The notes beneath the pieces are model-generated. The model had not been told where the DNA came from, did not search any database, and saw nothing but the letters and a program-made list of their open reading frames with translations. This document shows, piece after piece, positions 8,726-62,489 of a stretch of DNA of 64,000 nt. Each line of letters opens with the position of its first letter. The first letter of the stretch is position 1. The translations under genes and the position numbers were made by a program. Source of the DNA: Coriobacteriales bacterium (GTDB lineage: Bacteria > Actinomycetota > Coriobacteriia > Coriobacteriales > UBA8131); assembly GCA_031263025.1 (NCBI GenBank), contig JAISGO010000016.1:28018-92017 (forward strand), written 5' to 3'.

Positions 8726-9367
8726 TTAGCTGTTGGCGACCAGGGTGTAGGTGACCCTTGTGGTGTAGGTGTCATGCGGCTGCGAGCCGTCGATGGCGGC
8801 GCCGTAACCGATGGTGTAGAAGTCGCCGTTCACGCCCGCCGGAGCGCTCGTATTCGCGAGTTCAATACCAGCACTGGTCGGAGCGAGCCAGTCACCGGTA
8901 AACTCAGCGGTCTGGCTGGCCGTGGTGCGCTTATCGCTCAGCGCGATGCCCCAGGTGTTCTTCTCGAGACTTGCGGCGGAAAGAGCCTTGCTCGCACCGG
9001 CAACCTTGCCAGTCGCGGTGGTAGCGATGGAATTCTTCGTGCCAGTTTGCGGTAGCGCGCCGGTCAAAGTCTCGCCCGACGCGGTGAGCTTATAACCAGC
9101 GGTAGCATTCGAAACGACCTGCATTTCGGCACCGGTTTTCGTGCCGACTTTAAGCGTGCTGCCAGCCGGAGTGAGGGTGCCGAAGTCAATCGCGCTGGTG
9201 TCACCGCCAGTCAGGCTGAGCGCCTCCGCGACCTTCAGCGTGATCGGCGTGGCCACCGTCGGATTCGCCGCATGCGCGGCTTTCGGTGGGGCAGCCAGGA
9301 ACAGCATGGAGCTGGCGAGGCCGATGCTCAGGACGATGCCTAAGACTTTACTTTTAACCTGTGTCAT
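8726..9367 (-). CDS. Small secreted WxL-like (YxL variant) surface protein A
   Basis: ATG 9367 (GAAAGGA SD) is preferred over 9415. Signal peptide ends AAHA. LSLTGGDTSAIDFGTL, AGYKLTAS and the C-terminal YTTRVTYTLVANS follow the layout of WxL cell-surface domains. Paralogue of 9490-10182 and of the C-terminus of the giant protein. Confidence 0.6.
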   Translation of the reverse strand: MTQVKSKVLGIVLSIGLASSMLFLAAPPKAAHAANPTVATPITLKVAEALSLTGGDTSAIDFGTLTPAGSTLKVGTKTGAEMQVVSNATAGYKLTASGETLTGALPQTGTKNSIATTATGKVAGASKALSAASLEKNTWGIALSDKRTTASQTAEFTGDWLAPTSAGIELANTSAPAGVNGDFYTIGYGAAIDGSQPHDTYTTRVTYTLVANS

Positions 9368-9426
9368 GGTCTTTTCCTTTCTGATCAGGTTAATAACAAT
9401 AACAATCGACGACATGGCTATCTGCT

Positions 9427-13400: not shown

Positions 13401-16400
13401 CTTGTTCACCCGGGCAACGACGTAGCCGGTGGTGTCGATCAGGATGCTCCCGAAGTCTTGGTTGGGGTGACTGCGATAGGTAGCGCCGCCGATTGCCGCG
13501 CCGATCAGCCCTGGGCTGTTGTTGTCCGCGACTAGGTTTGCCTGTTCGAGGATCTTGATGGAGCCGCCGAGGGTCTGCTGGTTGTTCGCCGGAACACCAG
13601 CCCCGATGGTGGCCGCGGTGTTGGCGGATTGGGGACCACCTGTGCTTGCGTTGACGGTGACCGACCCTTTGAAGGTGAGGTCGCCGGGCTGGAAAGTGGT
13701 CGCCGTCCCAGTGGCGATGTCGCTTTCGGGATAGGCGCTGGCCCCGCCGATGGCGGCGGCACTTAGCTGGGCTGAGCTTTGCAGGATGCCGTCGCCCTGG
13801 ACCACGAGCGCGGCCGGGGCGTTCACGCTGATGCCAGCATAACCGCTGTTCGTGCTGCCGGTGATAAGGGTCGGGCTGGTGGTCGAGAAGCCCGGCTTCG
13901 CCACTTCGAGGGTGAGCTTGGTGCTCGCCTGCGGCTGCGCTGCGAAGCCACCGACGTCGATGCCAGGGGCCGGCGCGCTGGACGGAATAAGGGACAGGGC
14001 GGTCTTGTCTGTGCTGAACTCGGCGCGCAGATTGACCTTGACGCCAGAGGTGATCTTGACGGCATGGTCATTGGCGTTTTTCAAGCCGGTCTTCGCCTGC
14101 ATGGCAGTCGCGCCCCCGGAGGCGCTCCAGGCGCTCGCCCAGCCCTCGGAGGTCTTGATGGTGTAGCTTCCGGGTTTCTTGATGGTGAGCACACCGGGGC
14201 CGTCTTCAGAAAGACCGATTACGTCAGATGAGGACACGTCCTGGTTAGCGGATTTGTAGGAGAGGCCGATGCTTGCCGCGCTGAAATGGTTCAGGTCTTG
14301 AGTGGCAGTGGCCCTGGTGATCGGGCGGGTGGCTGAGAAGCCCGGCTTGATCGGCTGCACCGTCACCTTGACGGTCGCGCCGATGATGTAGCCATGGCGG
14401 TCTGTGGTGGAAGCATTACCGAGCGTATAAACTTGGCCGGTAGTGGCGCCAGGCAGCCAGGCGATGGCGGCGATCTTGTCAGAAGTGGGGGCTTGGGGGT
14501 TAAAGTAAGGTGCCATCGCGTAAGGGATAGCGTCACCCAGGGTGTTGGAGCTAAGGTTGATCAGGGGTAGCGGATAGTCTGCGGCAAGGCTCGGTGTAGT
14601 GGACTTGCGCGGTATCGTCAAGGCGCCGCTTACGCCGAAGCCGTCCTGGGGGACGAAGGCGGGATAGACGGCGGTGCTGCCATCGGCGGCGACCGGCTCA
14701 GGGGCGATGGAGTGGAGGGTGCCGGAGCCGGAGGAGCTGCCGGTCCCGTATTGCCCGAGGGCGAAGACGCTGCCGCCGCTGATGGTGGTCTTGCCCTTGA
14801 CGGTGGTCGCCTGGGCGGAGCTGCCCCGGCCGATCGCGGCAGCGTCCTCGGCGCCGCTGTCCCTACCCCAGGCACCAAGGGCGATGACGGTGCCGCCTGA
14901 GATGTTGATGTCCATGTTGTAGGTGGCACCGGCGTTGCTGGAGGCACCGGAGCCGATGGCGGCGGAACTCCCGCCTTGGAATTTGTTCCCAGGTAGGGAC
15001 TCTGTGTTCGGTAGGGTCTTGGCGTAGATGGTGCCGCTCTTGATGTTGATGGTACCTCTGGATTCGCGATTGCCGTTCTGGGTCGCGCCGGTGCCGATGG
15101 CAGCGCCGGCAGGTGTCAAACCAGGGCCGTCGCCCTGATTACCGCTTTTCACCAGCACCACGCCATCGGTGTCGATGGTGATGGTGCCGGCGTCGTTGAC
15201 CCGGCTGTCAGGATAAATCGTGTCGAGTTTAGACCCGGCATCGTTCTCGGTGCCGGAGGCGCTAGAGCCAGAACCGATGGCAGCGCCGGGATAATTTCCA
15301 CAGTTATTGGCTTTTGCGAACACGCTGGCGTGTTCAAGGATGTTGATCTCGGTGGCGTTCGCCCAGGCGCCGCCGCCGATGATGGCCGCGCCCGGATAGC
15401 GTGGAGCGGACTTCGAGTCGGACTGCCAGACAGAATTCTCCGCCCAAACCGTGACCGAACCGGTGAAGGTGATCCTGCCGGAGGTCTCGGAGGCGGCTCC
15501 CCCGATGGCGGCGGCTTGGCCTGAGTCGGCCTGATAAGGCTTGCCAGGTTTCTTGGTCTGCTCTTTGCTGATCCCGTTCTTAGCTTTTAGCGTGCCTTCG
15601 CCCTTGACGGTGAGCTCCGCCGTAGGGGGGACGTGGATGCCGGCGCGGGAGCTGACGGTCTCGATGTCGGTGCGATAGCCCCAGGCGGTGAGCGTGGTAG
15701 CGCTTCCGCTGACCTCGAGGACGAGCTTGGCCTTGTCGGAAAGGTCGATGGCGGGGACCGCGGTCGTGGTCGGCTTGAGCGCGAGGCCCCCAGTCGCACT
15801 CGTCCCCTTGCTCCCGGCGCTGTCCGCGACGACCTTGAGGCTGACGCTCGCGCCGGACGCGATGGCAATCGCGTGGTCGGGCGAGGCCGTGCCGCCGCTA
15901 TATGACCAGTTGGGATCGTCGTTCGCGGTGGTGATGGTATAGCTGCCGGATTTCTTGATGACGAGGACGCCGGTGTCGCTGCCGTTGCGCTTGACCTCGA
16001 CGTTGGCGCTGTCGGTGGGGTCGGGGCTTCCCGACGCGGCCTCGAGTTTGAAACCGGCGCCCTTGAAGGGGCTGGCGGCGAAGGCGAGCGGCAGGTGGGA
16101 AGCGCTACCCCCGGCGCGACCAAGGGCAGCCAAGGCCGGCCCTGCGGCCAAAGCCAGGGTGAAGACGACGAGCGCGACGACGCACATCAAGGAGCTGCGG
16201 TTGATACTCATGCCAAGGACAGAGAGCGCTTGCTGTGGGCCTGTCTGCAGGGAGCGGCGAAGACGGGCGGCGAGGGCTGCTTTCCTGTACCTGGCGCTCC
16301 TGTCTTTGTATAGAGTGCGAGTGGCCCCGCTGGAGAGGTGGTCTTGGCTGTCCTGGGTGGGCGGCGTCTTTTGGCGCCGGTCAAGGGAGTAGTGCAAAGC

Positions 16401-16445
16401 CGCCGATGATCGGCGACTGCGCAGCGAGTCAATTTTCCTGTCCAC
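10413..16445 (-). CDS. Giant surface protein 1: N-terminal anchor, three large beta-helix-like modules, C-terminal WxL-like domain
   Basis: 2010 aa from GTG 16445 (AGGAGGG 5 nt upstream). Arg-rich ~95-aa N-terminus, then one TM (LMCVVALVVFTLALAAGPALAAL). Three modules carry DHAIAI..G..V.L, PAIDL/PGIDVGG, many AAIGGG/GAGIGSG turns, YP(V/A)(Y/F)VP and A(A/V)(I/L/V)WLPG. C-terminal ~170 aa (nt 10416-10915) contain TGYQLSLQ and end in YTGKVLLTATVAP. The alternative start ATG 16211 has no SD. Confidence 0.8.
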   Translation of the reverse strand: MDRKIDSLRSRRSSAALHYSLDRRQKTPPTQDSQDHLSSGATRTLYKDRSARYRKAALAARLRRSLQTGPQQALSVLGMSINRSSLMCVVALVVFTLALAAGPALAALGRAGGSASHLPLAFAASPFKGAGFKLEAASGSPDPTDSANVEVKRNGSDTGVLVIKKSGSYTITTANDDPNWSYSGGTASPDHAIAIASGASVSLKVVADSAGSKGTSATGGLALKPTTTAVPAIDLSDKAKLVLEVSGSATTLTAWGYRTDIETVSSRAGIHVPPTAELTVKGEGTLKAKNGISKEQTKKPGKPYQADSGQAAAIGGAASETSGRITFTGSVTVWAENSVWQSDSKSAPRYPGAAIIGGGAWANATEINILEHASVFAKANNCGNYPGAAIGSGSSASGTENDAGSKLDTIYPDSRVNDAGTITIDTDGVVLVKSGNQGDGPGLTPAGAAIGTGATQNGNRESRGTINIKSGTIYAKTLPNTESLPGNKFQGGSSAAIGSGASSNAGATYNMDINISGGTVIALGAWGRDSGAEDAAAIGRGSSAQATTVKGKTTISGGSVFALGQYGTGSSSGSGTLHSIAPEPVAADGSTAVYPAFVPQDGFGVSGALTIPRKSTTPSLAADYPLPLINLSSNTLGDAIPYAMAPYFNPQAPTSDKIAAIAWLPGATTGQVYTLGNASTTDRHGYIIGATVKVTVQPIKPGFSATRPITRATATQDLNHFSAASIGLSYKSANQDVSSSDVIGLSEDGPGVLTIKKPGSYTIKTSEGWASAWSASGGATAMQAKTGLKNANDHAVKITSGVKVNLRAEFSTDKTALSLIPSSAPAPGIDVGGFAAQPQASTKLTLEVAKPGFSTTSPTLITGSTNSGYAGISVNAPAALVVQGDGILQSSAQLSAAAIGGASAYPESDIATGTATTFQPGDLTFKGSVTVNASTGGPQSANTAATIGAGVPANNQQTLGGSIKILEQANLVADNNSPGLIGAAIGGATYRSHPNQDFGSILIDTTGYVVARVNKGQAAAIGGASNDQSAETKGHIEIKNGTVLASTVANVGGAAAAIGAGSIIPSAPLKNPYTYAIDTTISGGIVVAYNPQTSGPRGVGIGAARNDALNGVTKVTGKTVITGGNVYACGWRYDKGEVGPNSLGQQTPDGSSGTAFAGPTDGDGNLVYPVYVPASLSVNNQVKSTDGLSFQVGAAKAQASDGVAQGQANLLPGIPTAFQDLFTPPLDVNLDAGYSAVLWLPADGAGIAAPGSLTAFVVKDASGNAALGGDPGFVANVRASYDPDPKKTEGGNKGAVCDNILCFYTQAVGFALGFLWYPRANAQADATRKVLKVTGDLVLTTYNSDNSWIYSNGQANSAHAIEITGAQVNLTIVKDKTASTGGTVATGGVNLMPTVANVAAGFPGLELLNGAQLSLHLAEGAQLRATGYAGKPGVHVADPASLSVNAADDAATLTATGSGGAAGIGTGVGETTKSGTLSFNGGTVVATGSSDGVSSGAGIGSGVAAFATPTVSVGPITVNGGQILARSVAATHTGAGVGSGAALSPNLGTPKQPGDIVYPGFLESVTVNGGTLVAWAGDVSTTAGVSGAGVGTGGMASYPYPADAKPTMPKQRFLVNGGTLIARGGLTPAVTMNPIPNGAGIGYGGNLSGSMLFDTGPMVQNGGRVIAWTEVSDSKTYGIMAVPYQISGGSLYASNGNVKGLSVYDFKVTDGASKARVYPVYLPETLASSGEVRFAAAGTIPAGGLAQDYLAPLADLTDPTLGGQSGLSALGPALSAAGITLPSYTNDPLAALVWLPGQPNDPSRSSYALTYTDIELTAAPDENALVANVIDSGLLYDGGRNDSALKTSLNLVRENWLSLAGPDFTKPIDLNVSQYGLTQTSQNLTIATSNPTGYQLSLQTTGAGPSLEAIDPTHAGKAFQPSAAGSSLAADSWGYGLTQAPLNSGYGTSAEKLSAWAQPSSTAPVTLSYPHASPNSQAPRKHSLWTGVNLADLPPDAYTGKVLLTATVAP

Positions 16446-21072: not shown

Positions 21073-21078
21073 GGAGGG

Positions 21079-21891: not shown

Positions 21892-21897
21892 TCTCCC

Positions 21898-21959: not shown

Positions 21960-21996
21960 GTAGTCGATTACCTTGGCGTTTATTGATGTTTCAATT

Positions 21997-22026: not shown

Positions 22027-22063
22027 GACCTTTGCCGGATTAGGATCAAGCGCGGCGATCCGC

Positions 22064-22390: not shown

Positions 22391-22558
22391 GGTTCTCTCC
22401 CCTCAACCGATTGTCGATACAGAGGCGCGGTCGCTTCGACGGTCATGTCGACGCTCGCGTCCCCTCATCCAAGGAGTATAGCGGATTCGTCGCACGCGCC
22501 GGCCACCCAACCAGAGAATCATTTGTTGGGAAAGCGCAGCGGCGGATTTGAAGCCAGC

Positions 22559-23992: not shown

Positions 23993-24023
23993 TAAAAATA
24001 AGTATACCGCAAAGGGAACACTT
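23955..24023. promoter_or_regulatory. Pair of palindromic operator-like sites straddling the hipA-like start codon
   Basis: TTGCGGTATACTT (23966-23978) and AAGTATACCGCAA (24000-24012) are perfect 13-bp inverted repeats around ATG 23992-23990. Each sits in a 24-bp AAGTAT...ACTT unit. Confidence 0.45.
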
Positions 24024-27546: not shown

Positions 27547-28371
27547 CTACTTTTCGCCTTCGCCCGCTTGCAACCCGATCATTATCTTGGAGAGGTAACG
27601 GTCGGGGTCGGTGCAGGTAGCCTCGTTCTGGATGTAGAGCCGGTAGACGCCGCCGCGCGGGGACAGTCCCTCGGCTTTGACATAGTCCTCCAGCCGTTCG
27701 CGCAATCCCTCGCTCTCGCCGTAGTTGCCCCGGCAGTAGCCGACTAGGTACAAGCCGGCGGGTAAAAGCTGCAGACCGCGGGGGTTGAGCGAGAAGAAGC
27801 GGTCGGGACACCAGGGTCGGCTGAGGAAATCGGCGAAGTCGCGGGTGTAGCCGCCGAGCGGGAAGTCTCCTTTGTAACCCTGCTTCTCCATGGTCCGCCA
27901 GGCCTTGAGGAAGGCTGGCACGTAGGCGCCCGGCCTGTAAGGCTGGTTGACGGTGGCGAAGGCGACGTGCCGCTCGTTCAGGCGCTTGATGGTGAAGGCG
28001 TCCAGGTCGCTCACATTATCACTCTCATGGATCATGTTCTTGAGTGTCGCGACGCTCGCGCGGGCTTGCTGCAGCTTGTCGATCTGCGCGGAGATGGCAT
28101 ATTCCTGCTGGTCTAGCAGCTCGTAGCTGGCAGCGTGGTCGTCCCGCCTCGCCATGTAGAGCCGGATCAGGTCCAGCGGGACGTCAGCCGAAGCCAGGAA
28201 CTTAATGGTGGCGGCGACGTTGGCCTGCATGACCTGATAGCTGCGCCGGCCGTTCACGTCCTTGTGCTGGGGCCGGAAGATGCCGTTCTTGTCGTAATAG
28301 CGCAGGGTGCTGGCCGGGATCCCGGTCAGCTCAGAGAACTGTTTGATGCTCAGAAGCTCGCTTTTCCTCAT
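27547..28371 (-). CDS. MerR family transcriptional regulator with C-terminal GyrI-like effector domain
   Basis: N-terminal LSIKQFSELTGIPASTLRYYDKNGIFRP. 274 aa (BmrR/BltR-like size). Divergent from giant gene 2. Confidence 0.85.
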   Translation of the reverse strand: MRKSELLSIKQFSELTGIPASTLRYYDKNGIFRPQHKDVNGRRSYQVMQANVAATIKFLASADVPLDLIRLYMARRDDHAASYELLDQQEYAISAQIDKLQQARASVATLKNMIHESDNVSDLDAFTIKRLNERHVAFATVNQPYRPGAYVPAFLKAWRTMEKQGYKGDFPLGGYTRDFADFLSRPWCPDRFFSLNPRGLQLLPAGLYLVGYCRGNYGESEGLRERLEDYVKAEGLSPRGGVYRLYIQNEATCTDPDRYLSKIMIGLQAGEGEK

Positions 28372-28628: not shown

Positions 28629-31600
28629 ATGAAAACGTCGAATGCCCCGAAGCGGAGTCGCTCCTTGGCGAAGCTGGTCTTGTCTGTTATCTTGATAATC
28701 TGCCTGTCCGGAAGCTTGATGTTCGCGAACGGCCTCGACCTGAGCCGTCTGGCCGGCGCCGACACCATTCAGACCAGCGCGGCTAGCGAAACGGAAACGG
28801 CGGCGGAATCCGAGTCGGTAGCTGACTTCGAAGTGACGCCGGAGTCTGAGTCCGCCGTGACTCCCGAACCTGCCGCGGATCCTGAGGAAACGTCACTTGC
28901 CGATCCGGCGGTGGACCCTGAGCCAGCGCTAGACCCCGATCCGGCGGCAGCCCCCGAGGCGGCGCAAGCGCGGGGGGGCAGGGCACAAAGAGCCGCTCCT
29001 GGCACTGGCGTCGGTTTTAGCTGGAACCCTTCAAGCGCCGCTAGTGTGAGCGGCAACATCTTAAAGGTGAACGGGGACATCACCCTCACCACCGACGACG
29101 CCACCATGCCCGCGGTGAACGGAGACCATGCCGTGGCGGTGCCCTGTGGCAAGACCGTCAAGATCTCGGTAGTCACCAACTCGGGCCAAAAGTTTCCTTC
29201 GGGCATCAACCTCGCACCTCAAAGCGGCTCCCTGCCCGGTATCGACGTGGGCGGCGATGCCACCAACTTTACCGCAAGCACCATCCTGAACCTCGACATC
29301 GCGGCTGGCGCGACCGTCACCACCATTGGCGTAGGAGCCTTTGGCGCCGGTATCCGGGTGGAATATCTGAACGCGCAGAAGACCGCCAGCCTGAACGTCA
29401 GCGGCGAGGGCACCTTGAACGCCAATGGCGGCGAATTCAACAACCGAGGAACAAGAGGGAACCCCGCCATCGGCGCTCCCAACACAACTTTGAAAACCAA
29501 CGACTCCGGCAATATCTCTATCGTCGACGCGACGGTGAACGCAAAGGGCGGAGTATATGCGCCCTCAATCGGCGTGGGCACTTCTTCCAACGACGCATCG
29601 GGAAATTTCGCTGGCAACTTCAGCGCTTCCGGCACGGCGACTATCCAGGCTTATGCGAGCGAACGCGCAGCCGCCATCGGGACCGCCGAAACCCTTGAGG
29701 CTAAAGGAGGTGCCAACTTCACTGGCGACTTCAGTTTGAGCGGTCAAGCTAAGCTCACAGCAATAACCTATAACGGCTCTACCGCGATAGGCACAGGCGG
29801 CATTCCTTGTCAAGAGTTTTCCGGAAACGTTGATATCTCCGAACAGGCCACCTTGAAGATCAATGCCCTTACTTACAATGGAGTCATTTATAGTAATAGA
29901 GGAGGCGTTGGCATCGGGAGTTCCACAAGAGCAAAAGGCCTTACCGGTACCATGACTGTGTCAGATGCCGCCACGGTGACCATTTATGCCGGATCAGGCA
30001 TCAATACTAAGGGCGGTGGACAGATCATCGTTAATGGTGGTCTCTTGGACGTTTATGGCGACGGTGGTGGAAGTGTTGGCTATGATGTCAATGCTGGTAT
30101 CATAGCCGGCGGCGGCACCAAGCCGACCCTGGTCGTCAACGGTGGCACGGTGATTGCCACCGCCGGGACAGATAATGCTGGAACGACCTGGGGACCGGGC
30201 ATCAACGGCAACGTGATCATAAATGGCGGCTCCCTCTACACTTCAGGGGCTTCCGGGGTCGGCCAGTCCGGTGGTGCGGTTGACACAGCGACTGTCGGTT
30301 CTCCTTCTATCAAAGGGACGGTCCAAAACAATGCTGGTAAAGACCTTTACCCGGTTTACGTGGACGCCGGGTATGCCACCAGCGGCACCATCGCGGTGCC
30401 TGCGGCGGTCGGCTTTATCAGTAGCGATTACACCGCGCCCTTGGGCGACTTACGCCAACCCGACCTGGGCGGCCTGCTGCCGGTGGGTTATCTGAACGAG
30501 CTGGGGATGCCACCACTACCCACCACTGACACACTGGCCGCGGTGCTCTGGCTCCCGGGAGCGGCCGGTCCAAGCTATGCCGAGTATAGCGGGGTGGTTG
30601 CTTCGGCTAACCCCACAGGCGGCATCTATGAGGTTAAAGTCGAGGACAACAACAAAGCCTTTGGCCCTGAGAACTTGAGTGGAACGGCTTTGCAGACCAA
30701 ACTCAACCTGGTGAAAGTGGAACCAGTCGTCCAGATCGGTTTCAAGTGGTCGCTCGATGGTAGCGCTTGGGCAGACAGGAACAAATACGTCTCCCAAGAC
30801 CCCAACACCCATATCGCCACCATAAACGGCTCAACAGACCAGCAAAACCCGCTTGAGCTGTGGATCAGTACCGCTAACGATCAAGCCGATTGGCTGTACG
30901 GTACCTCGGGTAACTACACTAAAGGCGGTCAAGGCCAAGCTTCGCCTGACCACGCCATCGCCATCAAAACGGGCACTTACGTTACCTTGCATGTGCTGGC
31001 TGATACGTCAGGGCAATATGGCACTACCGTCACTGGCGGCATTAACTGCAGCCCCGCTGCCGCTACAGCGGTTCCTGGCATTGATGTGGGCGGCGCGGTT
31101 ACCACGCTTAATGCCAATACCACTCTCAACCTCAATATCGCTGATACGGCTAAAGTGACCTGCGTCGCCGCACAGGAGACGATTCCTGGCGTGCGGGTCG
31201 AATATACAAGTAGCAATGCTTACGCCAACTTTAACCTAAGCGGTAAAGGGACGCTGGAAGTTAACAATAATTTTCTTAAAACTAATAGCGCCGCTGCTAT
31301 TGGTGGCAGCGGGTATGATGTGGCGAACGACTCCACACCTAGCACCTGCGGCAATATCTCCATCAAGGATACTACTGTTGTCGCTATCAACAAAACTTTT
31401 CGTGGTGCTGCCATCGGTACGGGAACAAGCCGTACGTCCAATTTTAAGGGGAATATCTCCATTTTCGGCTCTGCAAACGTAACCGCCACTGCTTTTACTG
31501 GTGTCAGCGGGACGGCTGCTGGTATTGGTACGGCAAGAGAAGATTCGGTAACCGGCGTAACAATTCAAAATAGCTTTACAGGCAGTGTCACTATCTCAGA

Positions 31601-34600
31601 TTCCGCCATCGTGAAAGCGACCGGAGGCGGTGCCGGTATCGGTATGGGCAATAGTAATTCATCAACCCCAGGTTATCTGAGCGGCGCCATCACTATAAGC
31701 GACAACGCCACAGTCATCGCTCAAGGCACGAATCGGTCTGCTGGTATCGGTACGGGTTATGGGAACAATGGTTCTAATAGCATAACCGGCAAGATCACCA
31801 TTGGGACTGGTTCAGGCGATACTTGTAAAGTGTATGCAAAGGGAGGTGATGGCGGTCCCGGTCTTGGCAGCGGAGGCGGGGGGATTAATAATAGCCCGTC
31901 TGGAGATGTTGGAGATATCGTGGTAAATGGCGGAACTTTGATTGCACAAGCTGGGGATGCCGTCGCTACTCGGTATACCTCTAATCCGCCTGCCGCCGGT
32001 ATCGGCAGTGGACCGATTATCCATATAAACAACCAGAGCCTTCCTGGTAAACCGGCAGACCTTACTATCAATGGCGGAACAGTGATTGCTATTGGCTCTG
32101 GAGTAATACCGTATAGCGCTAGCACGCCAAACCCTAACCCGCCAGGTGCTCCTTGGGCACCGGGCGTTGGCTCATCACTAAGGTCCGCAGACGGTGCTAT
32201 GACTACTGGCGGTAGCGTTACCGTGAATGGTGGCTCACTGTACACTTATGGAGCTTCCAGCGTTGGCAAGACAGATGGTAGTGTTAATACTAGTAGCAAA
32301 GCATCACCGTCTATTAGCGGTATGGTTAAGAACGCAGGCGGTAAAACCGCATATCCTGTTTATGTCCAGGATGGGTATGCCAGCGAGGGAACGATTACCG
32401 TACCGGCGCTGAGCGGTGTGACGGCTGCCGCTTATTCAGCACTCCTGTGCGATTTGGACTCGGCTAACTTGGGTGGTTTGCTTGATGCGAACTTCCAAAA
32501 GGCGCTGAGCGATGCAGGTCTGGCTTTCGCCGCCCCTGCGGCTGACCCTATTTCTGCGGTGCTCTGGTTGCCAGGTGCGGCCAACCCCTATAACACCTAT
32601 AAGAACATCACCACCAACTTGGGCGCAGGCACGCGTCAAGCGGTAGTGGAAAACGCCTATCCAGCTTACACGACCGCATATAACAATAAGCGCAACATCC
32701 TTGACGTGCAACCAATCGTGCACTTGGGCTTCAAATGGTCCGAGGACAGCGGAGCCACCAAGAACTGGTTTGACGAGAACGGCAACGTCGATCAGGATAC
32801 AATCAAGCGCGTAGCCACCATCACCGGCTCAAGCGACCCCAACCATCCCTTCGACCTCTGGGTCACCACCGCCAACGACCAGTCGGCTTGGTATTATGGC
32901 TCGCCTGGAAACTATACACCCGGCGGCAAAGGCCAGGCCTCGCCCGATCACGCCATTGCCATCAAAGCCGGCACCTTCGTGACCTTGCACGTGGTCACAG
33001 ACTCCGTTGGCACTTACGGTACTACTGCCAGCGGTGGCCTCAACTGCTCACCTACCACTTACGGCGGGAGCGCGCTTGACCTTTTGAACGGAGCTTCAAC
33101 TACTGACGTCACCGGGCTTACCCTTGACCTTGGTCAAGGTGCGACTTTGACTGCAGCTGGCCATACCTACGGTGCGGGTGTCCGGGTGGCTGACCTGAGC
33201 GCCTATGGCGGCGGCAAGGCCGCTTTGGCCATCACGGGTTCTGGTACACTGATCGCCCGTGGTGGCTTGGGTGATGACGCTTACGGTTCGGCGGGAATCG
33301 GCACGGTCGCCGCTAACGGCGCGAGCGTTGGTTATGGCAATAGCTATGCTAATTCTGCCGACTTGGGCTCTGTCAGTATCTCTGGCTCTGTTAAAGTGAG
33401 CGCCATAGGTGCGGACGACGACGACTATTATGGCGCTGCAGGCATCGGCACAGGTTTTTCTTTTAATGGACGCAGCGGAGACCTCAAGGGCGATATCGAG
33501 ATTTTCGGCGCCGCCCAAGTAAGCGCCCGTGGTGGTGCCTTCGCTTCTGGCATTGGCAGCGGCCTAAGCGATGCTGATAGCTCTGGGTCTTGGAGTGGAA
33601 GCCTTACCATAGGCAGCGATCCTCGGGATACCTGCCAGGTATTCGCCTCAGCGCCGCGGGGAGTGGGGGTTGGTTCTGGTCGAGCTTTCTCCGGTTTTTC
33701 CTCTGGTGACGTCGGAGATGTCTTGGTCAACGCCGGCCTGCTCTATGCGCGGGGTGGAGATGTGGATGATTCTGGCTCGGCGGGAATCGGCAGCGGCAGC
33801 AGCGACCAAGTGTCAACTGGCCGACCGGCTAATCTGACCGTCAGAGGGGGCGTTGTCATCGCCATCGGCGGCAGCAACGATGAGTCCGATCCCAGTCAAG
33901 CGACTGAGTGGGCCCCCGGTATCGGTTCTTCCTTAGGCGGAACCATGAACGGCGGTGGCAGCACCGTGGTAAACGGCGGTAATCTCTACACCTCCGGCGC
34001 CGCCCGTCAAAACGACGGCAGCGTCAACACGACCAGTTTCGCTTCGCCTTCGATCCAGGGTAGCGTCACGAACACGGATAGCACAGACCTTTATCCAGTC
34101 TATGTCCCCTCCAGTTACGCTACTAGCGGCACCGTCACGGTACCAACCATCGCTGGCGCGACTAAGAGTAATTATGCTGCGCCGCTTTGCAATCTTGCCG
34201 CAGCCGATTTGGGTGGGCTTATCAATAGCGGTACCCAAGCTCAGCTCACTCAGACTGGCATTGCCTTGACGGCCCCTACTACTGACCCGCTGGCGGCGGT
34301 GCTCTGGTTGCCCGGTGCGGTCAGCCCCTATCAACGCTACCAGAATATCACCCTGTCTGACAACGCGAGCGTCGGCGCTTTGACCGCGTTGGTGGAGAAC
34401 GCGGTGCCAACCTATGCAGCTGCCCAGGCTTCTGGGTCGACCAGTCAGCCTTATCAGCCAAAGCGCAATATAGTGATTGCCCCCATCATCGACCTCAGCC
34501 AGATCAAACCGGCCAGCCTCAGCGGCCTGACCAAGGTCTACGGCGACAACGACCCCTCCGACTGGATAAGCAAGGTGCAAAGCTATGCTGTAGACATTCT

Positions 34601-37600
34601 CAAGGATCAAGGTGTTTCCGATCTTGGCCTTAAAGACTTCAACATCACGGTCAGCCGAGACTCAGGCGAAGACGTTATTGCCAATGGCTATGCCATTCAT
34701 GTGGCGATTATCTATGCTGGCAGCAGCTACACTCTCAGTGGCGCACCCGCTGCTGCTAACTTCGTTATCACCCCAGCTCCCCTCAAGGTGGTATGGACCT
34801 CGCAGAACCAGCCAAACACCATTTTCTCTTATCCCTATAACGGGCAAGTACACCAGATCTTCGCTGATCTCGACAGTCTCAAGAATGGCGAGGATTTAAC
34901 CCTTGTTCCCGGTGGAGTTTTTAGCGCCACATCTGCTAATAGCTATACCGCTACGGTTTCTGCTGTTACTGCGGGCAAGAGTGCGAATCCGGGTAAGCCT
35001 TCTAACTACAGTTTTACCTCTGACAGCAAGAATTGGACCATCACCCAAGAGGAAATCGATTTTGCCCAGATCCAGGCAGGCAGCCTTAATACGCTGATCA
35101 AGGAATACGGCGAGAACGATCCCGACATCCAGGCGGTGGTGTGGACCTATGCCAGGGGCGTGCTCTCATCCGAGGGCGTGCTCGACTCTGACCTCGACCA
35201 ATTCATGATCACTGCGACGCGGACTTCTGGTGAGGACAAGGGGAGTTATCCTCTCACCATCACGGTCGACTACAACGGCTCTGACTACGACGTCAAGAAC
35301 CAGCCCGCTGACGCGAACTTCACCATCACGGCCGCGCCGCTCACGGTCGCTTGGACTTCGGATAACCAGGACAACACCCTGATGACCTATGAGTATGACG
35401 CGAAGCCACATAAGATCAACTTCGAGCTTAAGGGTCTGAAGAACGATGAGGAACTGACTCCGGATACCACGGGTACCTTCTCGGAAAAGGTGGCAGGCAG
35501 CTATATCGCCGAGGTCACCGGCATCAAAGATGGTAGCGGTGCCAAGGGGGGTAAGGCATCCAATTATAGCCTGGCCCCCTCCAAGCAAGGTTGGAGCATC
35601 GGTCAGAATGGCATTGACCTCGGCCAGATCTATCTGAGCAACCTCAGTCTGACTAAGGTCTACGGCGTTGCTGATCCCGATCTCAGTCTCGCGGTCACCC
35701 CCTACGTCCAGCGAGTCCTCACCAGCGAGGGCGTACATGCTGACGACCTGGGTGATTTCACCATCTCAGCTCAGCGTGTTCCAGGCGAAGATGCCGGCCC
35801 CTACGCTCTGACGGTGGGTGTCACTTATAACGGTAGTAACTATAGCATCGGCACTTCCACGCCTGATCCGGGTATTTTCACCATCACCCCGGCGCCGCTG
35901 ACGGTGGTCTGGACTTCCGATGATCCCTCAGGTAGCATGACCTTTCCCTATGACGGCCAAGTCCACGCCGTTTACGCAGCCCTCGACGGCCTTAAGAATG
36001 GTGAAGACCTTACTCTGAACAGAACCGGGACTTTCAAAACCAAGGTTGCCGGCAGCCATACTGCTACGGTCGCTGGTGTTACTTTGGGCACGGGCGCGAA
36101 GCCCGGCGACCCCTCCAACTACAGTTTTACCTCTGACAGCAAGAATTGGACCATCACCCAAGAGGAAATCGATTTGGCCCAGATCCAGGCAGGCAGCCTT
36201 AATATGCTGGCCAAGGAATACGGCGAGAACGACCCCGACATCCAGGCGGCGGTGTGGACCTATGCCAGGGGCGTGCTCTCATCCGAGGGCGTGCTTAACT
36301 CTGACCTCGACCAATTCATGATCTCGGCGACGCGGACTTCCGGTGAGGACAAGGGGAGTTATCCTCTCACCATCACGGTCGACTACAACGGCTCTGACTA
36401 CAACGTCAAGAACCAGCCCGCTGACGCGAACTTCGCTATCACGCCTGCACCGCTCACGGTTGTTTGGACCTCGGATAACCCCTTGCCCGGCGACCTCGCT
36501 TATGAATATGATGGCTTTTCCCATAAGATCAACCCCGGTCTCTCCGGTCTTAAGAACGGAGAGGAACTCGTCCTGACCACCGCCGGCGACCTCTCGGCAA
36601 GCATCGCCGGTGTCTATACCGCCGAGGTCACCGGAATCGGCAACGGCGACCCCGCGAAGCATGGCAAGCCTGGAAAGGTCAGCAATTATAGCTTCAGCCC
36701 CTCTAGCCAAGTCTGGAAGATCCTCCAGAACGCGGTCGACGTGGGGCGAATCGACCTTAAGGACCTGCATTTGGCCAAGGTCTATGGCGAAGATGACCCT
36801 GATTTCGCGCAAGCGGTCGCGAGCTCTGTCCGTGCTGGCCTCAGGGCTGAGGGCGTGCACATAGATGACCTAGATCTGTTCCAGATCTCGGCGGTCAGGG
36901 ATCCCGGGCAGAACGTGGGCAGGTACGACCTGCGAGTCGCGATCGACTACGCCGGAAACGATTACGCCGTGACCGGCGCTAGCGTCAACGCCGATTTCGA
37001 GATCACCCCGGCGCCTCTCACGGTGTCTTGGGTTTCGGATGGTCCGGCGAACGGTGGGATGACTTATGTCTACGATGGTCAAGAGCACCAGATCCGCGCG
37101 GTGTTCTCCGGTTTGAGATATGGCGATGGTCTGACCATGGTGCGGTCCGGAGATTTCTCAGGTATCGCCGCGGGAGATTATGACGCTCATGTCACCGACG
37201 TCTCCGATGGCGATGCGACCTGGCCTGGTTTCGCGATGAACTACGACTTCACGCCCTCCACCCAACACTGGACCATCGCGAAGGAGAAGGTCGACCTCGC
37301 GTTGATCGATCTGGCCACCTTAAAGCTCGCCAAGGTCAGAGGAGAAAGTGACCCCGACTTGAGCGCCAAAGTCAGTGATTACGTCCGCGGGGTGCTCGTT
37401 TCCGAGGGCGTACAGACCTTCGACCTGGACGACTTCCAGATCACGGCCAAGCGCGCTGCGGGCGAGAAGGTGGGAAGTTATCGCCTGACGATCGCGATCC
37501 TCTACTCCGGAAGTGACTACGACCTCATCGGTGAACCTGGAGCCGGTACGTTCAGCATCACTCCGAGCGCGGCCAAGGATAAGCCGGACAAGCCCGGCAA

Positions 37601-38222
37601 GTCGGATAAGCAAGATAAGAAAGACAAGCAGGACAAGCAGGATGAGCCAGGGTCTGGTTCTGATGTCAAGAAGCAGGATGAAGGGGCTCAGGATAAGGGC
37701 CAGGGCAATGGGCAGGACAATAGTCAGCCAAGGCTCGGTCTCGATCCCGATGTCGACGCGACGGGCGAAGACGGCACGGGGCAACCTCCGGTACCGGGGC
37801 CTTCGACTGGCACTGCCACCGATTCTGGCAATCAACAGAAACCGACCATGAGCGCCGGCGGAGGCAGCCAGGGTCTCGACCCGTTGGCGGCGTTAGGCGC
37901 CTTGCTAGGCGGAGTTGCCTTACTCTTCTTCCTCATCCTGATGGGGTTATGCTTCTGGTACCGTCCGCCTTTCAGGATTCGGCTTCCGAAGAGGCGCCTC
38001 TCCTTCGTGGTCGAACCCGACGATTACGAGAAGACGAAGCAGAACATCCTCGAGACTGGCGTGAGCGTGTACGACTGGCGTCATCGTCAGATTGCCAACT
38101 CCCGTCTGGCCGTCATCCGCATCTCGAAGCACGCGAAGGGTTATGTGGTTCGGCTCGGCGTCTACAAAAACGATGCGCCCCGCGTGTACCGACGTGCCCG
38201 TAAAACCCTGTACCAGTCTTAA
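28629..38222 (+). CDS. Giant surface protein 2: three large modules, six MBG(YGX)-like / YDG-like repeats, C-terminal TM anchor and basic tail
   Basis: 3197 aa. N-terminal signal/anchor KLVLSVILIICLSGSLMFA, then an acidic Pro-rich spacer. Modules at nt 29007-30725, 30726-32713 and 32714-34485 carry GFKWS, SPDHAIAIK.GT.VTLHV, PGIDVGG, many AAIG[TSG]G turns, NGGSLYT.GA, YPVYV and AAVLWLPGA. Then come KVYG.[ND]DP...GSYPLT...ANF.ITPAPLTV units alternating with Y.YDG..H units, a KD-rich stretch, a TM at about 37875-37961 and an 86-aa tail. No LPXTG. Confidence 0.85.
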   Translation: MKTSNAPKRSRSLAKLVLSVILIICLSGSLMFANGLDLSRLAGADTIQTSAASETETAAESESVADFEVTPESESAVTPEPAADPEETSLADPAVDPEPALDPDPAAAPEAAQARGGRAQRAAPGTGVGFSWNPSSAASVSGNILKVNGDITLTTDDATMPAVNGDHAVAVPCGKTVKISVVTNSGQKFPSGINLAPQSGSLPGIDVGGDATNFTASTILNLDIAAGATVTTIGVGAFGAGIRVEYLNAQKTASLNVSGEGTLNANGGEFNNRGTRGNPAIGAPNTTLKTNDSGNISIVDATVNAKGGVYAPSIGVGTSSNDASGNFAGNFSASGTATIQAYASERAAAIGTAETLEAKGGANFTGDFSLSGQAKLTAITYNGSTAIGTGGIPCQEFSGNVDISEQATLKINALTYNGVIYSNRGGVGIGSSTRAKGLTGTMTVSDAATVTIYAGSGINTKGGGQIIVNGGLLDVYGDGGGSVGYDVNAGIIAGGGTKPTLVVNGGTVIATAGTDNAGTTWGPGINGNVIINGGSLYTSGASGVGQSGGAVDTATVGSPSIKGTVQNNAGKDLYPVYVDAGYATSGTIAVPAAVGFISSDYTAPLGDLRQPDLGGLLPVGYLNELGMPPLPTTDTLAAVLWLPGAAGPSYAEYSGVVASANPTGGIYEVKVEDNNKAFGPENLSGTALQTKLNLVKVEPVVQIGFKWSLDGSAWADRNKYVSQDPNTHIATINGSTDQQNPLELWISTANDQADWLYGTSGNYTKGGQGQASPDHAIAIKTGTYVTLHVLADTSGQYGTTVTGGINCSPAAATAVPGIDVGGAVTTLNANTTLNLNIADTAKVTCVAAQETIPGVRVEYTSSNAYANFNLSGKGTLEVNNNFLKTNSAAAIGGSGYDVANDSTPSTCGNISIKDTTVVAINKTFRGAAIGTGTSRTSNFKGNISIFGSANVTATAFTGVSGTAAGIGTAREDSVTGVTIQNSFTGSVTISDSAIVKATGGGAGIGMGNSNSSTPGYLSGAITISDNATVIAQGTNRSAGIGTGYGNNGSNSITGKITIGTGSGDTCKVYAKGGDGGPGLGSGGGGINNSPSGDVGDIVVNGGTLIAQAGDAVATRYTSNPPAAGIGSGPIIHINNQSLPGKPADLTINGGTVIAIGSGVIPYSASTPNPNPPGAPWAPGVGSSLRSADGAMTTGGSVTVNGGSLYTYGASSVGKTDGSVNTSSKASPSISGMVKNAGGKTAYPVYVQDGYASEGTITVPALSGVTAAAYSALLCDLDSANLGGLLDANFQKALSDAGLAFAAPAADPISAVLWLPGAANPYNTYKNITTNLGAGTRQAVVENAYPAYTTAYNNKRNILDVQPIVHLGFKWSEDSGATKNWFDENGNVDQDTIKRVATITGSSDPNHPFDLWVTTANDQSAWYYGSPGNYTPGGKGQASPDHAIAIKAGTFVTLHVVTDSVGTYGTTASGGLNCSPTTYGGSALDLLNGASTTDVTGLTLDLGQGATLTAAGHTYGAGVRVADLSAYGGGKAALAITGSGTLIARGGLGDDAYGSAGIGTVAANGASVGYGNSYANSADLGSVSISGSVKVSAIGADDDDYYGAAGIGTGFSFNGRSGDLKGDIEIFGAAQVSARGGAFASGIGSGLSDADSSGSWSGSLTIGSDPRDTCQVFASAPRGVGVGSGRAFSGFSSGDVGDVLVNAGLLYARGGDVDDSGSAGIGSGSSDQVSTGRPANLTVRGGVVIAIGGSNDESDPSQATEWAPGIGSSLGGTMNGGGSTVVNGGNLYTSGAARQNDGSVNTTSFASPSIQGSVTNTDSTDLYPVYVPSSYATSGTVTVPTIAGATKSNYAAPLCNLAAADLGGLINSGTQAQLTQTGIALTAPTTDPLAAVLWLPGAVSPYQRYQNITLSDNASVGALTALVENAVPTYAAAQASGSTSQPYQPKRNIVIAPIIDLSQIKPASLSGLTKVYGDNDPSDWISKVQSYAVDILKDQGVSDLGLKDFNITVSRDSGEDVIANGYAIHVAIIYAGSSYTLSGAPAAANFVITPAPLKVVWTSQNQPNTIFSYPYNGQVHQIFADLDSLKNGEDLTLVPGGVFSATSANSYTATVSAVTAGKSANPGKPSNYSFTSDSKNWTITQEEIDFAQIQAGSLNTLIKEYGENDPDIQAVVWTYARGVLSSEGVLDSDLDQFMITATRTSGEDKGSYPLTITVDYNGSDYDVKNQPADANFTITAAPLTVAWTSDNQDNTLMTYEYDAKPHKINFELKGLKNDEELTPDTTGTFSEKVAGSYIAEVTGIKDGSGAKGGKASNYSLAPSKQGWSIGQNGIDLGQIYLSNLSLTKVYGVADPDLSLAVTPYVQRVLTSEGVHADDLGDFTISAQRVPGEDAGPYALTVGVTYNGSNYSIGTSTPDPGIFTITPAPLTVVWTSDDPSGSMTFPYDGQVHAVYAALDGLKNGEDLTLNRTGTFKTKVAGSHTATVAGVTLGTGAKPGDPSNYSFTSDSKNWTITQEEIDLAQIQAGSLNMLAKEYGENDPDIQAAVWTYARGVLSSEGVLNSDLDQFMISATRTSGEDKGSYPLTITVDYNGSDYNVKNQPADANFAITPAPLTVVWTSDNPLPGDLAYEYDGFSHKINPGLSGLKNGEELVLTTAGDLSASIAGVYTAEVTGIGNGDPAKHGKPGKVSNYSFSPSSQVWKILQNAVDVGRIDLKDLHLAKVYGEDDPDFAQAVASSVRAGLRAEGVHIDDLDLFQISAVRDPGQNVGRYDLRVAIDYAGNDYAVTGASVNADFEITPAPLTVSWVSDGPANGGMTYVYDGQEHQIRAVFSGLRYGDGLTMVRSGDFSGIAAGDYDAHVTDVSDGDATWPGFAMNYDFTPSTQHWTIAKEKVDLALIDLATLKLAKVRGESDPDLSAKVSDYVRGVLVSEGVQTFDLDDFQITAKRAAGEKVGSYRLTIAILYSGSDYDLIGEPGAGTFSITPSAAKDKPDKPGKSDKQDKKDKQDKQDEPGSGSDVKKQDEGAQDKGQGNGQDNSQPRLGLDPDVDATGEDGTGQPPVPGPSTGTATDSGNQQKPTMSAGGGSQGLDPLAALGALLGGVALLFFLILMGLCFWYRPPFRIRLPKRRLSFVVEPDDYEKTKQNILETGVSVYDWRHRQIANSRLAVIRISKHAKGYVVRLGVYKNDAPRVYRRARKTLYQS

Positions 38223-62288: not shown

Positions 62289-62363
62289 ATCCTGAAAGCG
62301 CAACAAAAGATTCCAAAGAAAAACCCTTATCTTCAACTAAAATCGGTCTAATAGTTGACGTCT

Positions 62364-62489
62364 GTTACCTTGTGGCAGTGGATGGAGGGATTTCAGAGTA
62401 TACGGGGAGGTATACGATAAAATCCCTCCGCCCACTGCCACAAGGTAACAGATGGAGGGATTTCAGAGTATACGGGGAGGTATACGATG
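62364..62489 (+). promoter_or_regulatory. Structured leader of giant gene 3: 30-nt hairpin plus a 38-bp direct duplication of the RBS/start region
   Basis: Arms at 62364-62393 and 62420-62449 (28 Watson-Crick pairs + 1 G-U out of 30). GATGGAGGGATTTCAGAGTATACGGGGAGGTATACGAT lies at 62381-62418 and 62451-62488. The second copy ends in the ATG of the gene. Confidence 0.5.

Follow-up and report, generated by a model that had tools for sequence, protein, structure and literature searches.

Three very long genes within a single stretch of bacterial DNA raise the question of what kind of protein is assembled from one large module used over and over, and what such a protein may do for the cell. The stretch, referred to here as the window, is 64,000 nucleotides long, and the source organism is an uncultured termite-gut-type Coriobacteriales bacterium represented by a MAG. 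A first-pass annotation had reported an undescribed module that, with two small proteins, looked like a lineage-specific surface or adhesion system. We find that the three genes encode giant, putatively cell-surface proteins in which a single predicted beta-helix module of 550-710 residues occurs seven times, three times each in genes A and B and once in gene C (Table 1). Judging by profile comparisons, the core of the module belongs to a repeat type that is already catalogued, and for this reason the proteins are better seen as a rare variant of known adhesin-like surface proteins than as a new kind of system.

Table 1. Positions of genes, modules and associated features in the window.
Feature	Position	Strand	Remarks
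Small secreted protein 2 (LBL67_02005)	8726..9415	-	gene B anchor-type domain
Small secreted protein 1, 230 aa	9490..10182	-	signal peptide (by eye) and gene B anchor-type domain
Gene B	10413..16445	-	single ORF, 2010 aa; NCBI MDR1016232.1, LBL67_02015
Gene B C-terminal anchor domain, ~155 aa	10416..10880	-	motif LSLxG..TN..GYxL...WGY...Y.G.V.LT
Module B3	10881..12521	-	last residues ...SLNLV
Module B2	12555..14279	-	
Module B1	14322..16067	-	
Divergent MerR-family regulator gene	27547..28371	-	upstream of gene A
Gene A	28629..38222	+	single ORF, 3197 aa; NCBI MDR1016247.1 'hypothetical protein', Coriobacteriales bacterium MAG, LBL67_02090
Gene A N-terminal hydrophobic segment, aa 14-34	28668..28730	+	Sec signal peptide or signal anchor, by inspection
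Module A1, aa 125-699	29001..30725	+	most degenerate copy of gene A
Module A2, aa 700-1362	30726..32714	+	reference copy
Module A3, aa 1363-1950	32715..34478	+	
Gene A stalk	34479..37565	+	about 5.5 repeats of ~186 aa, MBG_2 in each
Gene A C-terminal TM helix	37884..37958	+	by eye
Gene A 87-aa basic tail	37959..38219	+	C-terminal, after TM helix
Gene C structured leader	62361..62492	+	hairpin, then 42-nt direct repeat
Gene C, 5' part	62487..64000	+	cut by window end
Module C, first 253 residues	63240..64000	+	709 aa in full protein

Sequence comparison places the repetition in genes A and B far beyond chance. A profile of the module recovers three full-length copies in each (domain E 1e-122 to 1e-217), and blastp with A2 as the query finds A3 (E 4e-69), A1 (2e-60), C (2e-48) and the B modules (2e-14 to 1e-4). 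Motif searches give the same picture: GF[KSL]W occurs at residues 129, 704 and 1367 of protein A, with NGG[SN]LY, YPVYV and AVLWLPG present three times each; protein B has YP[VA][YF][VL] and WLP three times each, and protein C contains GFKW and SSDHAI. These results agree with the first-pass annotation that an ordered set of motifs recurs three times in A, three times in B and at least once in C, and the end that it gave for the array in gene A, 34485, is only 7 nt off. The order recurs as listed, but two motifs are less general than claimed, since exact PGIDVGG is limited to A1, A2 and B2, and LNLV at the module end to A1 and B3. The turns (x-x-I-G-x-G), previously placed every 20-25 residues, are in fact spaced by 36-39, with a median of 39.

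The modules share a three-part layout. An N-terminal entry region (GF[KS]W ... [D/N/Q]-H-A-I-x-I ... PGIDVGG), whose His is conserved in 23/23 aligned modules, leads into about 8-10 coils of ~37 residues with one A-G-I-G-x-G turn per coil, followed by a ~160-residue C-terminal cap (NGGSLY ... YPVYVP ... AVLWLPG). Pairwise identity between modules is 23-53%, and at the DNA level they are old duplicates, alignable only over the WLPG stretch (90 nt, 76%). The 45 columns conserved best across 28 modules, taken from 14 proteins, consist of G/A/I/V/L, Y-P-x-Y, W-L-P and one His, and none of them is D, E, K or R. This is not a catalytic-type pattern of conservation, and the single His may point to a functional site.

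No Pfam or NCBIfam model matches the modules at threshold, a profile check that the first-pass annotation had proposed. LRR, Cna-B, Big and Chlam_PMP give no match even at E<=10, in line with its exclusion of these families (for the GGAI / FxxN repeats of Chlam_PMP, 0/8 modules). The central ~350 residues are, by profile comparison, clearly homologous to Pfam Beta_helix_3 (PF18889) proteins. Direct hmmscan against PF18889 gives 13.1 bits for A2 and 18.1 bits for P0001 and P0016, below the gathering cut-off of 27, with no match in the other scanned modules. Aligning the module alignment to PF18889-positive segments with hhalign yields 99.1% (E 4e-19, 247 columns). The module profile matches 1707 representative proteins, in most cases along its positions ~140-430, and PF18889 is the only repeat family in 9 of the 11 core-only matches scanned (P0013 and ten more). 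Seven of these nine score above the 27-bit cut-off, up to the 173 bits of P0013, which matches the module profile at E 9.6e-31. As this core is homologous to PF18889 proteins and the repeat already figures among the stalk domains listed for fibrillar-adhesin-like proteins (PMC8286594), the term 'undescribed' was too strong for the whole module and holds only for the two caps and the composite bead, which have no existing model.

Structure prediction points to the same fold class. The AF2 model of A2, of medium confidence (pTM 0.85, mean pLDDT 69.5, with 40-65 in the C-terminal cap), consists of beta strands only, in a regular 3-4-strand rhythm. A Foldseek search with this model, also suggested beforehand, returned only right-handed parallel beta-helix proteins as neighbours, none of them significant: AlgG, tailspikes, Ag43/Hap passengers, L. 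reuteri SRRP, Awp3b and pectate-lyase-like phage proteins. The best E values were 0.2 (PDB) and 0.045 (BFVD), with TM-scores <=0.35, and no solved structure is close to the module.

The capped full module is rare, occurring in about 17-22 of 1.84 billion representative proteins, and the entry region with its invariant His is present in only 17 of the 150 top representatives. A scan for taxonomic spread, as the first-pass annotation had advised, found the full module in Coriobacteriales and Candidatus Ancillula MAGs among named carriers, and the family is lineage-restricted. The source MAG has at least eight module genes, at least five of them outside the window. Genes A, B and C sit among unrelated transport and housekeeping genes. 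The earlier view of a lineage-specific surface system can be kept for the lineage but not for the system, given these unrelated neighbours and the further paralogues elsewhere in the genome. Binding to mucin or host glycans, also raised at that stage, finds no support, the named relatives being from termite-gut-type MAGs.

Outside the modules, the three proteins differ in architecture; signal peptides and TM helices were assigned by eye throughout. Protein A begins with a signal or TM segment and an acidic Pro/Glu/Ala linker, and its three modules are followed by an MBG_2 stalk (YGX-type, PF18676, E 2.6e-29), a Lys/Asp/Gln-rich linker, a TM helix and a basic tail that matched no Pfam family. 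The stalk includes a recent 300-nt duplication (34941-35240 and 36054-36353, 91% identity). Full-length protein C (P0004/P0153, MDR1016269.1; 1299-1305 aa) has exactly one module, preceded by a TIG domain with an insertion and followed by three CarboxypepD_reg domains, LPLTG, a TM helix and an Arg-rich tail. Protein B probably starts at Met79 (16211), as in the JGI call, which gives 1932 aa, and consists of a signal peptide (by eye), three modules and the anchor domain. These architectures support the original description of secreted, anchored giants built from a repeated module, with a different anchor in each paralogue: a TM helix and basic tail in A, a shared domain in B, and in C, for which the first-pass annotation had named none, LPLTG after the CarboxypepD_reg domains. 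The regulatory contexts noted at the same time are real as well, both the divergent MerR gene and the leader upstream of gene C, which is strongly structured (z = -11.1). It comprises a hairpin with 43-nt arms (62361-62403 and 62410-62452) and a directly repeated 42-nt element (62381-62422 and 62451-62492). The GGAGG ribosome-binding site and the ATG lie in the second of these copies.

The anchor domain of gene B has homologues in the two small proteins encoded downstream and in the C-termini of at least eight other giant proteins. The window, L001, L002 and L011 each contain large together with small anchor-domain proteins, and the domain is also found with small partner proteins in Saccharibacteria. 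The related contig L011 additionally encodes a TM-helix protein that has a signal peptide and two beta domains, and a small sortase-signal protein. The domain had been called 'WxL-like', a label that failed every sequence test applied. The WxL model PF13731 has no match at E<=10 in the gene B C-terminus or the two small proteins, tblastn of plasmids found no WxL gene similar to the domain, and in place of the dual Trp-x-Leu motif it has GYxL and YT(L/A) and, in its centre, WGY. The sole family signal, which is sub-threshold, is a weak resemblance to the C-terminal domain of CPR Pam pilins. Small protein 2 matches NCBIfam NF058581 (CPR_Pam_pilin_C) with E 2.8e-4 and 21 bits against a cut-off of 55. 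The same model is matched by 4 of 12 anchor-domain members and by the Saccharibacteria homologue P0158, all at 17-21 bits against the 55-bit cut-off (best about 21 bits, E 1.2e-4). In a low-confidence monomer model (pLDDT 53), the first Foldseek matches are FimA-type pilins, at a non-significant E of 0.06-0.3.

On our reading, the modules are stiff beta-helix beads exposed at the cell surface, where they would serve as adhesins or spacers, with a different C-terminal anchor in each of the three proteins; their exposure, rigidity, adhesion and class of ligand are what we infer. The reading that we prefer, with a probability of roughly 0.55, is that self-contained capped beads form the outer adhesin part of the proteins, with divergent binding faces and gene-specific anchors. 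A Sec signal at the N-terminus would export each protein, and one to three beads, most likely right-handed, would follow one another head to tail, fixed to the Gram-positive envelope by a TM helix in A, an LPLTG sortase signal in C and, in B, a ~155-aa docking domain common to the small partners. Because the beads lie distal to stalk domains in A (MBG_2) and C (CarboxypepD_reg), they may correspond to the outer, rigid rod of a fibrillar-adhesin-like protein. The fold would be held by the Gly/Ala/Ile/Val positions that face inward, and diverged outward-facing positions might provide long binding faces for a polymeric gut ligand, such as plant-fibre polysaccharide, a protist surface or the gut wall.

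Alternatively, the beads may be a pure spacer or stalk that lends length and rigidity, with binding left to the TIG-inserted N-terminal region of relatives, to MBG repeats or to partner proteins. The purely structural conservation of the module would suit this role, as would the classification of Beta_helix_3 as a stalk that was never found together with a known adhesive domain (PMC8286594). A ~350-450-aa region without a family precedes the beads in P0006, P0007, P0009, P0010 and P0067, and in the first four of these, where the beads sit between this N-terminal region (~450 aa) and the anchor, their position fits a spacer as well as a binding head. We nonetheless consider a pure spacer rather unlikely, as no folded part lies further out than the beads in genes A, C and P0001, where conventional stalk domains already stand between beads and anchor. 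In A and B, moreover, a linker alone precedes the beads, which leaves no other binder within those proteins.

We regard it as improbable that the beads are polysaccharide-active enzymes, that is, cell-displayed lyase, hydrolase or epimerase beta-helices attacking gut plant fibre after the model of pectate lyases or tailspike depolymerases. The fold class, the invariant His and a lignocellulose-digesting habitat (inferred from MAG names) would be compatible with such activity, and the best Foldseek neighbours, although at E >=0.045 and low TM-scores they are not significant, include AlgG epimerase, Lam55A, PL6 lyases and tailspike depolymerases. Yet no Pfam or NCBIfam enzyme family matched even at E<=10. 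Beta-helix lyases and hydrolases rely on Asp/Glu/Lys/Arg-type residues, and the module conservation is structural, with no such residue conserved in the 28 modules, which makes an enzyme role unlikely; to our knowledge, the homologous Beta_helix_3 proteins are not enzymes either. We give slightly less credence again to self-association (Ag43-type, cell-cell) or a protective coat in place of foreign-ligand binding. Two points could be taken to favour it: passenger domains (Ag43, TibA, Hap) turn up as weak Foldseek matches, and one genome carries many paralogues. Those matches, however, are not significant, the modules have no sequence relation to autotransporter repeats, and strong divergence among paralogues speaks against homotypic zippers.

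Beads of this kind can be compared with several known systems. Beta_helix_3 proteins, which we read as giant surface proteins, mostly from Firmicutes and often with Flg_new/List_Bact_rpt repeats, share with the modules a coil grammar (I-T-I-x-G-G-x-V-x-A-x-G-G-x-x-G-A-G-I-G-x-G) and the context of long secreted multidomain proteins; P0027, P0083, P0086, P0123 and P0126 also have a YP.Y...WLP-type C-terminal cap. The modules differ in scoring 13-18 bits against 27, in their longer coils (~37 aa), and in being discrete capped beads in tandem rather than one long repeat run. Gene B and its two small neighbours repeat the layout of the WxL/Csc clusters known from lactobacilli, enterococci and Listeria (PMC9772566, PMC10599100), in which a large protein ending in a given domain is combined with small proteins made of that domain only, and some large WxL proteins have a beta-helical adhesin domain (PMC9772566). 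In architecture only, the two-beta-domain TM protein of L011 resembles WxLIP (DUF916-DUF3324-TM) and its small sortase-signal protein resembles CscD; no WxLIP-like gene (signal peptide, two beta domains, TM) was found in the window, and where WxL domains have their two W-x-L motifs, the gene B domain has G-Y-x-L and Y-T-(L/A).

The most interesting lead is the gene B anchor domain, with its weak Pam pilin likeness and its recurrence in Saccharibacteria. Its matches run nearly end to end along the Pam pilin model (3-147/148 NF058581 positions), and a beta strand lies right before the domain, where Pam's donated linker sits (bioRxiv 10.64898/2026.03.03.709456); the window has no gene for a PapD-like chaperone. 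In Pam and chaperone-usher-type pilins, an incomplete Ig-like fold is completed by a strand that the neighbouring subunit donates. As whole proteins, A, B and C parallel the fibrillar adhesins (Monzon, Lafita and Bateman 2021, PMC8286594), with which they share a signal peptide (by eye here), repeated stalk domains (MBG_2/CarboxypepD_reg), anchoring by LPXTG or TM helix, great length and a grouping into paralogue families. No recognised adhesive Pfam domain is present in A, B, C or their segments, and the candidate 'head' would instead be a beta-helix whose type has until now counted as stalk.

Genes A and B, two of the three giant genes, are uninterrupted open reading frames in a window of ~60% G+C, and the third, gene C, is cut by the window end. 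The ordered motif set described in the first-pass annotation recurs in all three. When module A2, the second of three in gene A, is compared with the three proteins by blastp, the other copies in A are matched at E 4e-69 and 2e-60, the copy in gene C at 2e-48, and those in gene B at 2e-14 to 1e-4. A profile built from the module copies finds three full-length modules each in A and B (domain E 1e-122 to 1e-217) and exactly one in C. The third module of A ends at 34478, at most 7 nt from the end at 34485 proposed earlier. Turns had been reported every 20-25 residues, but the x-x-I-G-x-G spacing measures 36-39 (median 39), and PGIDVGG and LNLV, both named as module motifs, are present in their exact forms in some copies and absent from others. 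At the DNA level the copies are ancient duplicates, and Tandem Repeats Finder detects no tandem repeats in gene A.

Coordinates of the giant genes and associated features in the window and on related contigs
Feature	Sequence	Position (nt)	Strand	Description
Small secreted protein 2	window	8726-9415	-	downstream of gene B; homologous to its anchor domain
Small secreted protein 1	window	9490-10182	-	immediately downstream of gene B; homologous to its anchor domain
Giant + small pairing	window	8726-10880	-	anchor domain of gene B and small proteins 1 and 2
Gene B	window	10413-16445	-	2010-aa ORF
Low-G+C stretch	window	~16776-24000		between genes B and A
DUF3800-XI RNA	window	21901-21947		
Gene A	window	28629-38222	+	3197-aa ORF
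Stalk duplication	window	34941-35240 and 36054-36353	+	300-nt internal duplication, gene A
Basic tail	window	37959-38219	+	87 residues, gene A
Leader with 42-nt repeat	window	62142-62492	+	upstream of gene C
Gene C, 5' part	window	62487 to window end	+	third giant ORF, start only
Split TIG/IPT domain	window	62487-63239	+	N-terminal, gene C; insertion of ~70 aa
Giant + small pairing	L001	2882-3853		
Giant + small pairing	L011	1-12175		
Giant + small pairing	L002	7000-10612		Candidatus Saccharibacteria MAG
296-aa protein	L002	5644-6534		adjoins sortase gene

Alignments divide the module into three parts: an entry region of ~130 residues with GF[KS]W, [D/N/Q]-H-A-I-x-I-x-x-G-x-x-V-x-L and PGIDVGG in order; ~8-10 coils of the form G-x-I-x-I-x-x-x-A-x-V-x-A-x-G-x-x-x-A-G-I-G-x-G; and a cap with NGGSLY-x-x-G, YPVYVP and A-V-L-W-L-P-G in order. 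An AlphaFold2 model of A2, built from an 8-sequence alignment (pTM 0.85, mean pLDDT 69.5), contains beta strands only, regularly arranged as three or four short ones in every ~37 residues, and its confidence drops over the final ~160 residues. Identity between these beads is 23-53%. When 28 modules (14 proteins) are aligned, the 45 columns with the best conservation comprise Gly/Ala/Ile/Val/Leu, Y-P-x-Y, W-L-P and a single His, found in 23 of the 23 modules aligned at that position; no column of conserved Asp, Glu, Lys or Arg was found among them.

Scanned as whole proteins against Pfam and NCBIfam, A and B gave no matches, not even to the MBG_2 domain of gene A, which is absent from an hmmscan of the 3197-aa whole and scores E 2.6e-29 on the isolated segment. 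For Gly-rich giants, whole-protein scans yield false negatives, and modules were therefore rescanned singly. These scans gave no Pfam or NCBIfam match above threshold; the sole family signal was Beta_helix_3 (PF18889), which scored 13-18 bits, short of its 27-bit cut-off. PDB sequence searches with A2 and with the module profile found no relative, and Foldseek searches of PDB and BFVD with the module model returned generic beta-helix proteins only, none significant (best E 0.2 and 0.045, respectively), including AlgG, phage tailspikes, Ag43/Hap passengers, the L. reuteri SRRP, Candida Awp3b and pectate-lyase-like phage proteins. An exhaustive profile search of 1.84 billion representatives yielded 1707 proteins at E<=1e-3, most of them covering only profile positions ~140-430. 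PF18889 is the only repeat family in nine of the eleven core-only matches scanned (up to 173 bits), and an hhalign comparison of the module alignment with PF18889-positive segments gave 99.1% probability (E 4e-19, 247 columns). The solenoid core is therefore clearly related to Beta_helix_3-type helices, as a divergent member. The capped bead itself is covered by no existing model. The repeated module is real and its proteins lack annotation, but as objects they are of a familiar kind, giant surface proteins of Gram-positive type whose beta-helix repeat is already catalogued. What is new is the packaging as capped beads, an entry region that is lineage-restricted and has an invariant His, the distal placement of a 'stalk' repeat and the large paralogue family in one genome.

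From N to C terminus, gene A encodes a hydrophobic segment, an acidic linker, three beads, ~5.5 MBG_2-containing repeats, a Lys/Asp/Gln-rich linker, a transmembrane (TM) helix and a basic tail. This 87-aa tail matches no Pfam family, is presumably cytoplasmic and has predicted-looking secondary structure; such a tail is unusual for a surface-protein anchor. The full-length gene C product (P0004) consists of a TIG domain interrupted by an insertion, a single bead, three CarboxypepD_reg domains, and an LPLTG motif, TM helix and Arg-rich tail that together are a sortase signal. Gene B encodes a signal peptide, three beads and a ~155-aa C-terminal domain, its anchor domain. Beads are thus distal to conventional stalk domains in A and C, and in four relatives (P0006, P0007, P0009 and P0010) they lie between an N-terminal region of no assigned family and an anchor. 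A LamG-like identity for this N-terminal region found no support in Pfam, which gave only a split TIG domain. The TIG/IPT insertion, short in gene C, reaches ~350 aa in those four proteins and in P0067, where it belongs to no recognisable family, and is a candidate ligand-binding head. The MBG_2 stalk of gene A carries a recent internal duplication (91% identity, copies 1113 nt apart), and stalk length is evolving faster than the beads.

In public records, the three proteins (LBL67_02090, LBL67_02015 and MDR1016269.1) are a 'hypothetical protein' or a 'carboxypeptidase-like regulatory domain-containing protein' of a Coriobacteriales bacterium MAG. At least five further module proteins (P0005, P0006, P0009, P0010/P0154 and P0067) are encoded in this MAG, for a total of at least eight genes and ~18 modules. 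Two other MAGs contain named relatives, a second one of Coriobacteriales (LBM21) and one of Candidatus Ancillula sp. (LBM13), Ancillula being a lineage of termite-gut flagellate symbionts (PMC11707648), and several relatives lie on contigs of one JGI metagenome, 3300042599. From the MAG names of these relatives, we infer a termite-gut origin for the window. Of the 150 top-ranked representatives, only 17 have the N-terminal entry region and 22 the C-terminal cap. The exhaustive HMM search was used in place of a word-indexed homologue search, which was swamped by Gly-rich words and gave one match with A2 and none with a caps-only alignment. Preset patterns run against 185,579 GTDB species genomes gave 14 matches, none confirmed; YPVY.P...A..WLP hit six GTDB loci, about the chance expectation, and hmmsearch of their six-frame translations found no relative. 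Scanning JGI metagenome contigs produced no confirmed copies, although the relative P0001 fits the pattern, so this collection is incomplete for the purpose. Both the GTDB and the JGI contig collections are evidently incomplete for this lineage.

We favor a reading, with a probability of roughly 0.55, in which the module is a rigid, surface-exposed beta-helix bead of fibrillar-adhesin-like proteins whose outward faces bind a polymeric ligand. Exported by Sec and anchored at the C-terminus, the tandem beads would make up an outer rod, with the fold held by the conserved inward-facing small and aliphatic residues, and the diverged outward-facing residues would form long binding faces. Monzon et al. 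list Beta_helix_3 as a stalk domain of fibrillar-adhesin-like proteins and never found it with a known adhesive domain (PMC8286594). That the beads are likewise a pure spacer seems unlikely to us; in genes A and C it is the MBG_2 and CarboxypepD_reg domains that lie on the anchor side, and Beta_helix_3 helices can evidently take the distal 'head' position, so that their classification as mere stalks may need revision. A polysaccharide-active enzyme is still less probable, since charged residues are not conserved and no enzyme family gives a signal, and it is the invariant His that keeps this idea alive. Self-association or a coat is the least probable of these roles.

If the beads are indeed adhesive, the capped Beta_helix_3-type bead would be a small family amenable to modelling, and at least eight 'hypothetical' giant genes in one termite-gut-type Coriobacteriales genome, together with their Candidatus Ancillula relatives, would become recognisable surface-adhesin candidates. 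These could provide handles on bacterial attachment to wood particles, protists or the gut wall.

The proposal that A, B and C form one surface system did not hold. Their neighbours (a MerR regulator, an SSF symporter, an MFS transporter, a FecCD-type ABC transporter, MMPL, a tyrosine phosphatase and an island with Fic, RhuM and HipA-like genes) are unrelated, so a joint operon was rejected and the three giant genes are dispersed paralogues. The MerR-family gene divergent from gene A was confirmed, as was a structured leader upstream of gene C, where 345 nt fold far more strongly than shuffled controls (z = -11.1); upstream of gene B the structure is only mild (z = -2.5). Three hairpins are present in the gene C leader, a terminator-like one for the ABC operon upstream, a second one and one with 43-nt arms, the last followed by a 42-nt direct repeat. 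This repeat duplicates the GGAGG ribosome-binding site and start region, with ATA in copy 1 and ATG in copy 2, the copy bearing the ribosome-binding site and start codon of gene C. The arrangement suggests that alternative pairing may control translation. The leader matches no Rfam family, and the only Rfam hit in the window is a DUF3800-XI RNA. This RNA lies in the low-G+C stretch (0.46-0.49 at 18-22 kb vs ~0.6 elsewhere), which also carries Fic/DOC, RhuM-family and HipA-like/HTH genes and resembles a mobile or defence island.

The anchor domain of gene B recurs at the C-termini of at least eight other beta-helix giants (P0006, P0008, P0009, P0010, P0016, P0054, P0068 and P0117) and in two-domain proteins of 338 and 372 aa on contig L011. 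A giant ending in this domain is followed by a small domain-only protein in the window and in three other places, the Coriobacteriales-type contigs L001 and L011 and a Candidatus Saccharibacteria MAG (L002). In the Saccharibacteria MAG, a 980-aa protein with Beta_helix/NosD, Big_7 and fn3 domains and then the anchor domain (E 3e-12) is followed by the homologue P0158, with a sortase gene nearby. The 296-aa protein adjoining a sortase gene on that contig (MAG GCA_009777625.1) combines a short beta-helix-like repeat region with an NPATG-type sorting signal, like LPLTGDD of gene C and TPQTGDD of P0001. The anchor domain had been called WxL-like, but it does not match PF13731 at E<=10, lacks a W-x-L pair and shows no similarity to plasmid WxL genes by tblastn, and WxL membership was rejected. 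PDB sequence searches with its profile and with a 380-aa protein of L011 gave nothing meaningful. Four of the 12 aligned members, and P0158, match NCBIfam CPR_Pam_pilin_C end to end, at a sub-threshold 17-21 bits against a cut-off of 55, and a poor monomer model (pLDDT 53) places FimA pilins first in Foldseek at non-significant E. That this is a docking domain of strand-complemented, pilin type is therefore a lead and not an established result.

It is a doubtful extension that this domain is akin to the Pam pilin C-terminus, and perhaps to WxL, and that the giants are cargo or tip subunits of an unrecognised Actinomycetota fibre or docking system, with a sortase substrate and a two-domain, chaperone-like membrane-anchored protein among its components. 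We found no chaperone-like or WxLIP-like gene in the window. Were the extension correct, it would tie the Pam pili, supposedly exclusive to CPR, to Firmicutes WxL clusters, and a docking or pilin-like domain common to Actinomycetota and Saccharibacteria would make the kinship of three surface-display systems testable. The 380-aa protein of contig L011 has a signal peptide, two beta-rich domains and a TM helix; a 194-aa CarboxypepD_reg protein from that contig carries an LAHTG sortase signal. In architecture this corresponds to the parts list of WxL/Csc clusters, with their small WxL, large WxL, WxLIP (DUF916-DUF3324-TM) and LPXTG proteins (PMC9772566, PMC10599100), and to that of the Pam operon of CPR bacteria, with its pilins and membrane-anchored PapD-like chaperones (bioRxiv 10.64898/2026.03.03.709456).
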